Part shown: piece by piece, positions 48,001 through 63,000 of the stretch
How positions within the stretch are numbered: position 1 is the first letter of the stretch
Layout of the letters: each line of letters starts with the position of its first letter
Assembly (NCBI GenBank): GCA_017461365.1
Contig: JAFTYG010000056.1
Location: forward strand, 7,089-71,088
DNA: 64,000 nt
Origin: Clostridia bacterium
GTDB taxonomy: Bacteria; Bacillota; Clostridia; Oscillospirales; CAG-272
Reading direction: 5' to 3'
Program-made: the position numbers

Positions 48001-51000
48001 TCTTGGTACTACTTACGCGTGGTTTACCGACAGTGTAACGAGTGCAGAAAATATCATCACAGCGGGAAATCTCGATGTGACGCTTGAATTCGCTGACGCT
48101 AAGGCTGATCCCGAGGCTACGGAAACAGAATGGACCGACGCGTCAAACACGCCGATCTTCACATATGAGAACTGGGAGCCCGGCTACGTTGAGGCGCACC
48201 ACATCAAGATCACCAACGCGGGTACACTTGACCTTAAGTACGTGATACATATCGAGATTGAGGACGGCGGAAGGATCGATGACGTTCAAAAGGTTATTGA
48301 CATATATTACGTTGATCCTGCCGTAAAGGTTGAGAGCCGCGCCGATCTTAGCGAAGAAATGAAGCTCGGAACGTTGGAATACGTTCTCAGCAATCCCGAT
48401 ATGAACGGCAAGCTTCTTGCGGGTGAGTCGGACACTATTACTCTTGCTCTTAAGATGCAGGAGAGCGCGGGCAATGATTACAGAGATATGCAGATAGGTC
48501 CGTTTACGATCAAGCTTCTTGCAACTCAGCTTGCTTCTGAGGATGACAGCTTTGACAACAAGTATGATGCGGATGCAATGTATCCTGCCGACGCTTGGGA
48601 CGGAAAGGCTGATACCTCTTGGTACAACGATACCGATACGAATTTTATTATTGGAACTGCTGAACAGCTTGCGGGATTGGCAGAGCTTGTAGACGATGGT
48701 GAGACGTTTGAGGGTAAGACGGTTAGGTTGGACAATAACATTGATCTCGAAGCTTATAATGAAGAGGGAGAGCTTATTAGCTTCAATCCTGTGGGTTCGT
48801 ATGCATTCGATAAGGCTTTCAAGGGTACGTTCAACGGTCAGGGACATATTATATATAATATGTATGAGAATGGTTGGGCGTTAGGCAGTGGTCTTTGGGA
48901 TGGCGATGATTGCGGACTTGGCTTGTTTGGTCTCATCGAAGATGCTACCGTTCAAAATTTAAAAATTGATGGTGCAGATCTTCCCTCGGAAGCAAATTTG
49001 ATCGGTTCTGTTGCAGGCGCAGCTTACGGAGAGTGCTTGTTTGAGAACATCACGGTTACCAATACATCTATGGGAAATCACTCTTATTATAGCGGCGGTG
49101 TTGTTGGTTGGGCATCAGGAAATCATAAATACATCAACTGCGATCTCGATGAAAGTAACGTTATAGCTTCGCAGTGGGGTGACTTCAACAATGCTAACGG
49201 CGGTATTATCGGCGGTGCAGGTAAGAGAGGTACTTATTATTTTGAGGATTGCGATGTTGCGTGTGTATTGGATGCATTTAATGATGTTACTTCTGCATAT
49301 GAATGGTATGCTTACCGTAATTGCGGAATGTTGATCGGTAATACAGGTCGTACGGAAGTAATTGACGGTACGACGTATGCAGCGGCTGACAATGTAACGA
49401 CTGTAAATTGTACAGTAACATACGGTGATTGGGCAAATTATCATTACTGTCAGTTTAATGCTATGGGGTATCCTTGGGTTCGTGTTGAGGAGGGATATAG
49501 CACACACGCTTACGGTAATGCGAGATACGATTATGCAACAGATGCTAATGGTAACGAAGTTAAGGACGAAAACCACGTTCACAACGACGGCGAAGGTCAT
49601 AATCTGCTCTTAGTATTTGATCAGCTGTTCGGTGGTTCACAAGGCGGTGTTTACGGTACGGCAAGTCATGACGGCGTAACCGTTATCTACAACAACAAGT
49701 AAAATGCGTTCTGCCGACTCTTGGTGAGTCGCATAACAGAGGCTGTTTCGCTTCGGCGGGGCAGCCTCTTTTCTTTGTTTCTTTAGGGTGTTTTTTCTAC
49801 GAAAATTCTGAATGTGTCTATGACAATTTTTGTAAATCCTCACAAAAGACTTGACTTTTCTCATCTGAAAGGATATAATAAAACAAAGAGCAAAAAACGG
49901 AAAAGACATAAAACAGAGGAGGAATGAGCCTATGCCTTTTTACCGATATGCGGCGCGATACGTGGCGGGTGACGAGGGGAACGACCATTATTCTATTCGC
50001 TCTCTCGTTCCGTTCTCGGTTGAAAATGAGAAAAACAAATATTTTGTTCACTGTTGTTATACCACTGAGAAGGATGACGCGAGCTCGGTCTACGTTGTGA
50101 GCTTCGGTTACGAGCGCGATTGGCCCGAAAAGGTGGAGGGGCCGAAGAGCAACGACCGTTTCGGTGTGTGCTACGTTATGAGCGGCCGTGGGTATTTCAA
50201 CGGTATGCCTGTTCACTCGGGGCAGTTCTTTTTCAGCCATCCTTACGAAACCCATACTATAGAAGAGGATCCGAGCGATCCTATGGAATATTATTACATA
50301 AGTGTGGCGGGAAAGGGGACTGTGGAGCTTATGCGCGACCTCGGTTTTCTTTCTATTCCGAAGGTATCTGATTTCCGATTTGGGGATACCGTTGCAGAGC
50401 TTATCGGCAATGCCCTATACAGAGTTCCCTCAAACGTGGACTACGAGATCTATTTTTACGGTGTATTTATGCAGCTTATGGCGTATCACCGCAAGGAAAA
50501 CCGTTCGGCGATCAACAATGCGACAAAGCTTGATAAGTACGCCTACTACAAAAAGGCGGTGACGTTTATTCACGAATGTATCCTTGACGGTATTACGGCG
50601 GCGGACGTGGCGCAGCATTTGCATATCTCTCCGTCCTATCTGCGCGCTATATTTTCGGAGTTCTGCCAATATTCGGTGCGCGAGCTGATAATACGCAAGA
50701 AGATGGACTGCGCTATGAACTATATGATCTGCGATGATTACACTGTTGAGCGTGTGTCGAGGCTTCTCGGTTATGAGGACTACAACCAATTCTCGAAGAT
50801 ATTCAAAAAATACACGGGGATGTCGCCTCTTGCCTACAAAAAGGCTCACGCAAACGAAAAGGTGCGCAACGACAGCTCTCAGACAATGGGGGCTGAATAC
50901 TGATCCGAATTTGATATTTACGGGGATTTCCTTTATCGGTATTTTTCGGTAGGGGGAGTCCTTTTCTTTTTTTGCCGTTTGGATCATCAGTGGCGAAAAA

Positions 51001-60000: not shown

Positions 60001-63000
60001 AAAGTGCGGTTATATTCTCAAAGCGTCGAGCGAGCCTGTTGAGGGCAGGATGATACTTGTCGGCAGGACGGAGGTAGGCGCGCCCGACGATATGACGAAT
60101 GCGGTGTCTTCTGACAATTATTATATGGGAATGAGTGGAGACGATCTTTATCTGTACGGCGTCGATCTTGTTTCGGCAAGCAAGGCGATAGGTGATTTTA
60201 CCGAGCTTTTAGAAGAGGGCGAGGGTAAGACGGTAGAGCTTTCTCCGAGAACAGGTGAGGTAAGCGCACCCGATACATCCTTGAAGTCTATGACATTCAA
60301 TGTTTATTGGGACACAAGTGACTCAACACGTGTGCAGAACGTTATAGCTACCATCAGAAAGCATTCTCCCGACACCTTTTGCGTTCAGGAGGCTACGGGA
60401 ACGTGGATGGCGAGACTTTCCGTCGCTTTCAGCGATGAATATGCGTGGGTTGGAAAGGGACGTATTGGAAATGGCAGCATAAATGACGAATACTGCGCGG
60501 TTTTCTACAAAAAGAGCAGATTTGAGCTTATCGAGTCTGACACGAAGTGGTTGTCCGAGACTCCCGACGTTGCGGGCTCTGTGATGCCCGGGGCAAAGTA
60601 TGCGAGAGTATTTACTTATGCGTTACTTGAGGATAAGGTGACGGGTGAGCGTTTTGTTTGTATGAACACTCACACCGACCACGTTGATGACGGCGGAGCT
60701 GTAAGACTTAAGCAGGCGGCTGTGATCACGGATTTTATTGCGGAAAAGTTTCCCGATACGCCTCTTCTGCTTACGGGAGATATGAACGATACGGCGACAT
60801 CGAGCGCGATAAAGCATCTGCTTTCCTCGGGGCTTGAAAATTCTTCGGAGATTGCCGTTTTGGGGGACAAGTCGTATTCATTCAAGCAGTCGGTAATTGA
60901 TTTTCTGCTTTTGAGTGAGAGAGATTTCAAGGTCTACACGTATGACGTTGATACGGATACGATTGACGGGGAATATCCTTCGGATCACCGCGCGGTGGTT
61001 ATAAAATATGATATTGTAAGTAAATGATCTCTCATATTGACCTGCTCGCGACAGATGTGGGTAGGTCTTTTTTATGAAATTTTATATATCTCTTGACAAA
61101 TCGTATCGAAATAGTATATACTTATGATATTATTAAATTTAGGCTCCAAGGAGACGTAAAAATGAGCAAGATAGGTGTATTGATTAGTTTAAAGGGTGAC
61201 AGCGATATTCTTCAGAAGTTTACCGAGGTCAAAAATAACGGATTTGAATGCTGTCAGATCTCTATATGGGATATGTCATTCTATACCGACGCGAATGCAA
61301 AGGCGATAAGCGATGCCGTTTCGGCTACGGGGGTTGAGATCTCTACGCTTTGGGCGGGTTGGTCGGGACCTAAGGAATGGAATTTTACGGGCGGTCCTAT
61401 GACTCTCGGTATCGTTCCCGCTCCGTTCAGGATGCAGAGGGCTGAGGAGCTTATCGAGGCGGCTCGGTTTGCATCCAAGATCGGTGTTAAGAGGGTTGCG
61501 ACTCATGCGGGATTTCTTCCCGAAAATATGAGCGATCCCGAGTACTGCGGTGTTATTGCTATTCTCAGGTACATTGTAGGAAAGTACAAGGCTCTCGGAG
61601 TGGATTTCCTTTTTGAGACGGGGCAGGAGACTCCCATCACTCTTCTTCGCGTTATAGAGGAGCTTGGTTCGGACAACGTGGGTATAAATCTTGACACGGC
61701 AAATCTTATACTCTACGGCAAGGCGAATACTGCTGACGCTGTTACTGTGTTCGGAAAATATGTAAGAGACACTCACATCAAGGACGGACTTTATCCTACC
61801 ACGGGTGCTCGGCTTGGAATTGAGACCAAGGTAGGGGAGGGAATGGCGGATATTCCCAAGGTGGTCAAGCGTCTGCGCGCGGTCGGGTATGACGGAAATT
61901 ACATTATCGAGCGTGAGATAAGCGGTGAGCAGCAGATAAGGGATATACTTGACACGAAGGTGTATCTTGAGGCTATACTTGCTTGATATTATATATTATC
62001 CTCCCGATTTTTCGGGAGGATGTTTTTTTGTTTTAAAGTCGGAAGATTTTTCTTGACAAAGCGTGGAAAGTTTGGTATAATAATAAGAGAGCGTTGTGAT
62101 GCGGGTGATAGTATCGGGATGTAGCGCAGTTGGTAGCGCGCGTGGTTTGGGAGCGTGCAGGCAGTTCCTGTCTTTTCATTTTCCCGAAGCTCGAAATCCC
62201 TTGAAAGCACTGACTTTTTCGGCACTCTACTCTCTCGCAAAATCCTCACAATAAGTGGTTTGACCACAGATTTGACCACTTACGAAAAAACGCAAAAATT
62301 CAATATTTTTCACACTTCGGGGTGTGGCGCAGTTGGTAGCGCGCGACGTTTGGGACGTCGATGCCGCAGGTTCGAATCCTGTCACTCCGACCATATCGAG
62401 TGTTCATAACAGATTTCAGTTATGGACACTCGATATTTTTATGTCTGCATTTATATTTCGTTGTTTGGGGTAGCGTTTGGCTACTCTTTTTCTTTTAGAT
62501 CGCGTTAGGTAGATATTCGATTGCCACGCCTTTACGGGAGTCGAGGATAAAGTGAGGTCGCTCAATGATGCCGGGGATGTCAAGCCTGCCGACAAAACGG
62601 TAGTGAATGATAAAGCGCTGCGTTCTGTCCTTGCCCTTTCCCTCAACGGGAAACACCTCGATCTTCTCGATAAGCTCTCGCAGAAGTATCGGCGTTAAGG
62701 TCTGCATCTCCATAAACTTGCGGATGGCGCGCAGGAAGTCATCCTTTGCCGTCTGCATTTGGTCGATCTTATCAAGCTTCTCTTGAAGCTCAAACATCTG
62801 CCGCTTTAGCTCCTCCTGCTCGGCTTCGTACTTGTTGGAAAGTTGCATAAACCACTCGTCCGTGACCTTGCCCTCCACGTTGTCCTCGTAGAGCTTCCCG
62901 AAAAGTCCGAGGAGCTTTTTGCTGCGTGCTTTCGCGGTCGAGAATGCCCCTTCCGCCGTTTTTCTCTCGCGTATCATATCTTTGTTGGTTTTCTGCTCCA

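Follow-up and report, generated by a model that had tools for sequence, protein, structure and literature searches.

An AraC-headed lipoprotein cluster of an uncultured clostridium is one of many permease-less cassettes that may serve the use of decorated glycans

Contig JAFTYG010000056.1 (C40 in the numbering used here) belongs to a metagenome-assembled genome (MAG) of a Clostridia bacterium from the order Oscillospirales, lineage CAG-272 (GCA_017461365.1; 2.38 Mb in 92 contigs, 95% complete, 5.8% contamination). In the stretch of 64,000 nucleotides that was analysed (C40:7089-71088, called the window below; the contig stops 25 bp past its end), a series of genes for surface lipoproteins follows a gene for an AraC-type regulator. 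An initial annotation, made from the sequence alone, had regarded the composition of this cluster as odd for a Gram-positive polysaccharide-utilisation locus. The cluster proves to be one of about twenty paralogous cassettes in the same genome, and we describe here its parts, its relatives and the function that such cassettes may have. Positions are those of the window unless a contig is named.

Eight genes follow the regulator, where the initial annotation had counted ten; all the open reading frames (ORFs) it listed are present on the + strand at the positions it gave. The regulator gene itself (49932-50903) encodes a protein of 323 amino acids (aa). The next gene codes for EEP1 (51101-52903; 600 aa; lipobox LTAC), a lipoprotein in which a tandem N-terminal module precedes a C-terminal domain of the endonuclease/exonuclease/phosphatase (EEP) fold. 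It is followed by a gene for a solute-binding protein (SBP) of 500 aa (52950-54452; lipobox LVAC; SBP_bac_8), by one for a secreted GLUG-type beta-helix protein of 728 aa with a type I signal peptide (54487-56673), and by a 53-aa acidic peptide ORF (56691-56852). The second half of the cluster encodes a CE2-type SGNH esterase lipoprotein with CE2_N and GDSL domains (56925-58193; lipobox LVSC), a PHP-fold protein of 323 aa with a sub-threshold PHP match and a HxH motif (58213-59184), a second EEP lipoprotein with the same kind of N-terminal module, EEP2 (59354-61027; 557 aa; lipobox LVSC), and a xylose-isomerase-like TIM barrel recognised by AP_endonuc_2 (61162-61986). The four lipoboxes were read in the translations; neither the PHP protein nor the TIM barrel carries a signal peptide, and the AraC protein lacks both a signal peptide and a transmembrane segment. 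EEP1, SBP, the GLUG protein, the CE2 esterase and EEP2 are membrane-anchored or secreted, and the PHP protein, the TIM barrel and the AraC regulator are cytosolic. A scan of the cluster's proteins with Pfam and NCBIfam found no permease, ATPase or glycoside hydrolase (GH) domain, which bears out what the initial annotation had said on this point.

Both EEP lipoproteins match Exo_endo_phos (PF03372) well above its cut-off of 24.5 bits (EEP1 53.3 bits, aa 359-592; EEP2 55.1 bits), with 24% identity between the two proteins. The catalytic residues, whose loss had been named in the initial annotation as an argument against its own reading, are all kept: in an alignment of 21 sequences (EEP1, EEP2 and 19 homologues) N341, E381, H468, D502, N504, D591 and H592 are invariant. 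Compared with solved structures, EEP2 matches 3g6s (3e-22), 3mpr and 4c1r (BT3783, 9e-15) and 3l1w (9e-14). The best solved matches place the EEP domain, as far as sequence comparison can tell, with the BT3783 sugar phosphatase group and not with DNase I or ExoIII. The protein of entry 4c1r, BT3783, was assayed as a sugar phosphatase and is encoded in the yeast-mannan polysaccharide-utilisation locus (PUL) 2 of Bacteroides thetaiotaomicron (Cuskin et al. 2015, PMC4978465). Among the solved relatives whose function is known it is the nearest. EEP enzymes of gut Clostridia that form the GlcNAc-PDase family strip phosphocholine or phosphoethanolamine from GlcNAc-6 (PMC10704324).

The N-terminal module of about 270 aa is common to EEP1 and EEP2, as had been noticed before. 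It has no Pfam match, and its sequence profile gives only chance-level matches in the PDB. An AlphaFold (AF2) model computed from 14 paralogs (predicted local distance difference test, pLDDT, 78) consists of two repeated alpha/beta units, and a Foldseek search with this model returns the N-terminal domains of GH20, GH115, GH84 and GH67 enzymes at 5e-6 to 1e-3. The module is a tandem GH20b/GH67N-like domain. When 1.84 billion proteins, clustered at 50% identity, were searched with its profile, 7,825 clusters matched, and E<=1e-30 was reached by 976. When Pfam domains were tallied in 75 sampled module representatives, an EEP domain was the partner in 43 and a metallo-beta-lactamase (MBL) fold in nine; GH16 was found in three, alkaline phosphatase and a BNR sialidase-like domain in two each, and Metallophosphoesterase and DUF4838 in one each. 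On the module itself Glyco_hydro_20b scored directly in four of the 75 and Glyco_hydro_67N in two. A separate homologue search also showed fusions to alkaline phosphatase, metallophosphoesterase and glycerophosphodiester phosphodiesterase (GDPD) domains. By its fold matches and fusions the module is an accessory domain of carbohydrate enzymes, joined mostly to phosphoester hydrolases. In the source genome its hidden Markov model (HMM) finds 27 proteins, about 24 once duplicated contigs are removed; among ten tested that have no EEP domain, nine carry an MBL domain.

The SBP_bac_8 score of the binding protein lies exactly at the cut-off of 27 bits. When the SBP, GLUG and PHP proteins were each searched as single sequences against the PDB, none had a match; information came from a fold search and from profiles only. 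The AF2 model of the SBP (pLDDT 85, predicted template modelling score 0.82; residues 23-53 below pLDDT 50) is matched by Foldseek, at about 1e-13, to MalE2, GacH, GltA and UgpB; by sequence profile the SBP matches MalE of the PDB at about 1e-4. The model is that of a MalE-fold, lipid-anchored binding protein of the type used by CUT1 importers. Its family comprises 22 paralogs of about 500 aa in the source genome.

The 728-aa secreted protein has no Pfam match by itself; a profile built on its paralogs finds 3n6z, a GLUG-type structure in the PDB, at 1e-12. About 30 such paralogs of 530-1,430 aa are encoded in the genome, with beta-helix repeats and a common C-terminal domain of about 140 aa. 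Twenty-one of them were scanned with Pfam models, with Peptidase_M26_N found in two and Glug in one; some bear CBM9, F5/8-C, GDSL or pectate-lyase-like adhesive domains. Two adjoining genes of the window outside the cluster (46006-47658 and 47927-49702) share a near-identical TasA/SipW-type N-terminus (MTNKKTTKRALIASV...TTYAWFTD) and differ in their C-terminal parts: one is leucine-rich-repeat-like, and for the other the GLUG family HMM gives 7e-41. The same type of N-terminus occurs in further GLUG-family members of the genome (C54_6111, C27_23493).

The 53-aa ORF starts 18 nt past the stop codon of the GLUG gene, and this arrangement recurs: 17 of the 30 GLUG-family genes have a peptide ORF 13-22 nt downstream of the stop. 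The peptide family contains 25 ORFs of 44-55 aa with a conserved N-terminus (MKxYxxPxxExxxxxxxDIxTxS) and a variable, acidic tail rich in G, D and S; its mean net charge is -4.4 and Cys is nearly absent. Nearly all genes of this family stand at the said distance behind a GLUG gene. Other sites include C52:54755-54922, C60:24515-24676 and C13:4682-4825, and the pair of GLUG and peptide genes is also found in loci from other genomes (L003, L035, L036, L037 and L043). On such data the small ORF is a real gene. No library model matches the family, and models of leaders of ribosomally synthesised and post-translationally modified peptides (RiPPs) score below threshold only. A RiPP precursor was considered for its leader-like layout and rejected, as the cassettes hold no maturase genes and the peptides almost no Cys.

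Among the remaining products, the esterase matches CE2_N with 30.5 bits (3.9e-7; cut-off 27.9) and Lipase_GDSL_2 with 59 bits (1e-15). Its translation contains the GDS block (FIGDSIS) and the GTND block, and its score against the equivalog AxeC2 is far below the cut-off. Past its lipobox lies a linker encoded by a tandem repeat, (PDDPET)4, at 57057-57128; long acidic tethers of low complexity occur in many of the cassette lipoproteins, residues 23-53 of the SBP being an example. The TIM barrel matches AP_endonuc_2 with 95 bits (7e-27) and is predicted to be xylose-isomerase-like, of the sugar or sugar-phosphate isomerase/epimerase type.

What had seemed an isolated locus is repeated throughout the genome, and the paralogous cassettes are spread over many contigs. 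Eighteen of the 22 SBP genes have an N-module lipoprotein gene within 3 kb on the same strand, often separated by a gap of 0-70 nt; a GLUG paralog lies within 6 kb of 16 of them and an AraC gene within 8 kb of 11 (several missing neighbours fall at contig ends). The core of a cassette consists of an anchored phosphoesterase-fold lipoprotein, a permease-less MalE-fold SBP and a secreted GLUG protein followed by the acidic peptide gene. The cassette of the window adds to this core the CE2 esterase lipoprotein, the second EEP lipoprotein, the cytosolic PHP protein and the cytosolic TIM barrel. In the sister cassettes the N-terminal module is fused to an EEP or an MBL domain, and the cytosolic enzymes encoded there include GH2 (beta-mannosidase-like), GH92, GH127, GH31, GH43, GH94, GH20 and trehalase/MGH1-like (GH37/63-like) enzymes, as well as MBL proteins, a metallophosphoesterase and further TIM barrels.

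Comparison with foreign loci answers the check on co-conservation that the initial annotation had proposed, since the same gene order is found in several MAG species. The order AraC-EEP-SBP-GLUG-CE2-PHP is kept in L001, L002, L008 and L009, with 42-44% identity between the EEP proteins; L010, L011, L031 and L043 show variants of it, and L003 is interrupted by a contig end. An AraC gene adjoins the orthologous cassette in L001, L002, L003, L008, L009, L010 and L011. A PHP gene accompanies the N-module EEP and SBP genes in ten foreign loci, and TIM barrels of the same type occur in four others (L022, L026, L027 and L034). Chance adjacency of unrelated genes is ruled out by this synteny. Full-length relatives of EEP1 come only from MAGs labelled as uncultured Clostridia, Eubacteriales or Oscillospiraceae, with sources in the guts of roe deer, buffalo, goat, horse and human. 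The module is present in 20 of 121 genomes of the order (19 of 87 genera), and the source genome is the richest of them; the SBP family counts 22 members there, 17 in genome G114 and five in G095. A literature search found no described system of such architecture, an absence that is no proof of novelty.

No ABC permease lies within 15 kb of any of the 22 SBP genes of the source genome, and none was found in the 87 foreign loci fetched. The absent permease is a genome-wide trait of this SBP family and nothing special to the locus of the window. The whole genome encodes only 11 ABC permease domains, with three sugar-type permease pairs among them. One pair, on C33, belongs to a complete system, which includes an unrelated SBP of its own together with an MsmX-like ATPase. 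The search for orphan permease pairs that the initial annotation had suggested recovered the other two, which are LplB/LplC-like and SBP-less and both lie on C84 (93185-95009 and 101734-103842). They form part of a larger locus (C84:89343-103842) that encodes in turn a 1,265-aa secreted protein, the first permease pair, a Yip1/NHL/TPR membrane protein, a 1,443-aa DUF5696 protein (Pfam PF18952) and the second permease pair.

A connection between this locus and the orphan binding proteins is offered by G002, a relative from another family of the same order, in which an SBP of the family (5.5e-39 to the family HMM) adjoins two permeases and a DUF5696 protein. The best matches of this operon in the source genome are C84_101734 (38%, 6e-65), C84_102715 (35%, 4e-57) and C84_97391, so that the C84 segment 97391-103842 and the G002 operon both combine a DUF5696 protein with an LplB/LplC-like permease pair. 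They differ in that no SBP of the family stands beside the DUF5696 locus in the source genome and in five further sampled genomes of its family: each of these six has one such locus, never on a contig with a family SBP. G002 has six DUF5696 loci and 29 permease domains. We infer that the C84 locus (93185-103842) is the best candidate for a translocator shared by the cassettes. No other type of transporter recurred consistently when proteins with at least six transmembrane segments were sought within 8 kb of the 22 SBP genes. A gene for an SSS-type sodium:solute symporter-like protein with nine predicted transmembrane segments (C54:54434-56044) lies directly upstream of one cassette, composed of a regulator, an SBP, an N-module EEP and two GLUG genes; this is the sole cassette with a transporter-like neighbour.

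The AraC protein combines a cupin-type sensor domain (AraC_binding, 2.1e-5) with two helix-turn-helix domains (HTH_AraC, 2.7e-16, and HTH_18). Its gene is preceded by a sigma-70-like promoter at 49851-49879 on the + strand (TTGACT-17-TATAAT), whose 11/12 matching positions are a match to consensus only. Upstream of EEP1, at 51046-51054 (+), stands the extended -10 box TGcTATAAT with no good -35, just as the initial annotation had read it; such a promoter fits activator dependence. Terminator-like hairpins were located at 50922-50963, at 56865-56891 (+; 11 pairs, 7 of them GC, closing the EEP1-SBP-GLUG-peptide unit), past EEP2 at 61039-61067 (+) and at 61997-62022, and promoter-like sites at 59261 and, for the TIM barrel gene, at 61093-61122. 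Because these hairpins and promoter-like sites interrupt the cluster, at least four transcription units are predicted: AraC; EEP1-SBP-GLUG-small ORF; CE2-PHP, possibly with EEP2; and TIM. A motif TGGCGAAAA(A/G)GAC occurs at 50990-51004 and at 59231-59245, about 55 nt upstream of the -10 boxes of EEP1 and EEP2. It was considered as a shared AraC operator and dropped, as a match of 12-13/14 is about the chance level in such comparisons. Directly downstream of the cluster, at 62318-64000, lie a tRNA-Pro gene and the gene of a large serine recombinase truncated by the contig end; they probably mark the border of an integrated element and do not belong to the cassette. The idea that the cluster is a horizontally acquired island was set aside, as these two genes lie outside it and cassettes of its kind occur on many contigs.

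The reading to which we incline, with slightly more confidence than doubt, is that the locus is one of about twenty AraC-controlled glycan-utilisation cassettes, specific to a lineage of uncultured gut Clostridia, which cut phospho- or acetyl-decorated glycans at the cell surface and rely on a shared importer. That products are imported at all is implied by the cytosolic hydrolases and cytosolic AraC sensors of the cassettes, and all cassettes probably feed one transporter encoded elsewhere. The GLUG beta-helix protein would hold the polymer at the cell surface, where EEP1 and EEP2 would hydrolyse decorations or bridges made of sugar-phosphate esters or diesters, and O-acetyl groups would be stripped by the CE2 esterase. 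The SBP would then capture the freed sugar or oligosaccharide, possibly still phosphorylated, and pass it to the shared ABC translocator, for which C84 is the candidate, powered by an MsmX-like ATPase. In the cytosol the PHP protein may dephosphorylate and the TIM barrel isomerise the product, which would be sensed by the AraC regulator as activator of the promoter with the weak -35. The recurrence of PHP beside the EEP-SBP pair hints at a product that retains phosphate when it is imported. In its outline, surface chemistry on phosphoesters and acetyl groups with finishing steps in the cytosol, this agrees with what the initial annotation had proposed, and the intact catalytic set of the EEP domains, the likeness of EEP2 to BT3783, the fusions of the module to phosphoester hydrolases and the co-conservation speak for it; the notion of a singular locus had to be given up. 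As for substrates, the initial annotation had named teichoic acid, phosphoglycan and extracellular DNA (eDNA), of which eDNA is now the least favoured. It is speculation that 6-O-substituted hexose polymers, for instance microbial wall polymers or mannans with phosphate or acetyl groups, would be apt substrates for a CE2 enzyme paired with a BT3783-like one.

Several observations weigh against this reading. EEP1, the first enzyme of the cluster, resembles sugar phosphatases only weakly, with 3g6s at 2e-3 as its single solved match. The PHP protein has the N-terminal motif HDTHTH and scores 22.2 bits with PF02811, below the Pfam cut-off of 26.4, next to a weak match to the PRK09248 domain of NCBIfam. 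The lack of a glycoside hydrolase is peculiar to the cassette of the window and is not shared by its sisters. Phosphoesterases are present in about twenty cassettes whose glycoside hydrolases hint at varied glycans, which is hard to understand if all the substrates have to be phosphorylated. The C84 permeases are tied to the 22 binding proteins only indirectly, by counting and by their orthology to a single canonical locus from a different family. Finally, the contamination of the MAG, its 92 contigs and the duplication of some of them (C92=C52, C76=C12) make copy numbers of cassettes approximate. C92_811 equals C52_54936, C76_592 equals C12_60167, and C9_14717 is close to C83_14207, which reflects assembly redundancy or a mixture of strains; such redundancy on small contigs slightly inflates the counts of paralogs.

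The most serious alternative concerns the binding protein itself. SBP-fold lipoproteins might have nothing to do with transport and act as surface glycan binders, comparable to SusD or surface glycan-binding proteins (SGBPs), which work together with the N-module enzyme and the GLUG protein while uptake proceeds through an unrelated carrier. The absence of permeases around the SBP genes at home and in foreign loci, the tight pairing of these genes with N-module lipoprotein genes and the mere three sugar-type permease pairs of the genome speak for such a role. We nevertheless hold it to be unlikely: a member of the family sits in a canonical operon of DUF5696, two permeases and SBP in G002, the orthologous permease locus has been kept, though SBP-less, by all six genomes of the source's family, no other transporter type recurs beside the cassettes, and cytosolic glycoside hydrolases, PHP proteins and AraC sensors need import.

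Two further explanations accept the surface chemistry and assign it another target. The cassette could remodel the cell's own envelope, by turnover or editing of a phosphodiester-linked, O-acetylated wall glycopolymer of teichoic-acid-like type; its extracytoplasmic parts are all held, by lipoboxes, on the surface of the cell itself or close to it, the mixture of phosphodiesterase-type enzymes and a deacetylase fits wall-polymer chemistry, and the cassette of the window has no glycoside hydrolase. About twenty differently equipped cassettes with AraC-type sugar sensors, many of them with catabolic cytosolic glycoside hydrolases, resemble nutrient acquisition instead, and a copy number that ranges from 0 to more than 20 between related genera is typical of niche-adaptive catabolic loci, which makes housekeeping of the own wall rather improbable. 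The other target would be extracellular nucleic acid, with EEP and ComEC/RNase-J-like MBL lipoproteins cutting eDNA or RNA and the SBP taking up products that contain ribose or deoxyribose. A weak match of EEP2, which scores 23.7 bits with the ExeM/NucH DNase model where the cut-off is 300, the MBL domain of the paralogs, whose nearest solved relatives are the ComEC nuclease domain (1.6e-6) and, weakly, RNase J, and a dinucleotide-binding SBP at rank 46 of the structural neighbours of the SBP agree with such scavenging. We regard it as very improbable in view of the BT3783-type rather than DNase I- or ExoIII-type matches of the EEP domain, the carbohydrate-enzyme character of the accessory module, and the CE2 esterase, the CBM9 and F5/8-C domains of GLUG paralogs and the glycoside hydrolases of sister cassettes, which all point to glycans. 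Both the own-wall and the nucleic-acid explanation agree less well with the signs of carbohydrate use and with a cassette composition that varies and looks catabolic.

Set beside known systems, the proposed glycan cassettes combine familiar parts in an unfamiliar way. BT3783 shares with the EEP lipoproteins the fold, the Mg-dependent catalytic set, the extracytoplasmic location and the encoding within a glycan locus, and it removes phosphate from a decorated glycan. It differs as a single-domain protein of about 300 aa from a SusC/D PUL of a Gram-negative organism, whereas the EEP domains described here stand behind a tandem GH20b-like module in Gram-positive lipoproteins, beside an orphan SBP; EEP1 is also much more distant from it than EEP2, and the activity of both is predicted from sequence. 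The GlcNAc-PDases of uncultured gut Clostridia are EEP enzymes too; they are secreted and strictly specific for sugar phosphodiesters (PMC10704324), so that the superfamily does perform such chemistry in the habitat. Those proteins are single-domain, 219-357 aa long, and cluster apart from the cd09083-type group; their comparison with EEP1 and EEP2 is one by description only.

CUT1 importers employ lipoprotein SBPs of the LplA or MalE type, MsmX or MsmK ATPases are common to several permeases, and OppA paralogs use one Opp permease. The SBP of the window agrees with this pattern as a MalE-type, lipid-anchored protein with a relative in a normal permease operon in G002. A CUT1 binding protein is expected to be encoded with a permease pair and an ATPase; the SBP family stands at these loci without them, with about 22 SBP genes against at most three sugar-type permease pairs, and the partners of each SBP are a surface phosphoesterase and a GLUG protein. 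A Gram-positive PUL, as defined for Roseburia and Eubacterium, is composed of a regulator, an ABC transporter and carbohydrate-active enzymes (CAZymes). At the locus of the window the AraC regulator and the CE2 esterase are there, and of the transporter only the binding protein. The cassettes resemble both Gram-positive PULs and the Sus-like PULs of Bacteroidota in being modular, regulator-headed and numerous within one genome, with binding and trimming at the surface and finishing enzymes inside the cell. They differ in that they have no membrane component of a transporter and no SusC/D pair, that their defining enzyme is a phosphoesterase-fold lipoprotein and not a glycoside hydrolase, and that the GLUG gene is joined by a small gene for a leader-like peptide.

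A bolder proposal, which we put forward as doubtful, is that the cassettes form a Gram-positive counterpart of the Sus systems. Dozens of interchangeable units would each recognise another glycoconjugate that is phosphorylated or bridged by phosphodiesters (examples are fungal phosphomannan, plant glycosyl-inositol-phospho-lipids and microbial wall polymers), and all would depend on one DUF5696-associated translocator; the small peptides would serve the beta-helix proteins as partners or signals, each specific to its cassette. Should the reading of glycan cassettes with a shared importer hold, capture of nutrients would take place outside both current models, that of Sus-like PULs and that of Gram-positive PULs with local ABC transporters, since one translocator would serve many surface cassettes, each headed by a regulator, and a phosphoester hydrolase, not a glycoside hydrolase, would be their hallmark. 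It would account for the failure of automated prediction of PULs and transporters on such genomes, place three large families (the tandem GH20b-like module, the orphan SBPs and the 45-55-aa peptides) in a functional context, and provide DUF5696-associated permeases with a testable role. The group concerned would be widespread uncultured Clostridia of herbivore and human guts, for which phosphorylated and phosphodiester-linked glycans would represent a neglected class of gut nutrients.

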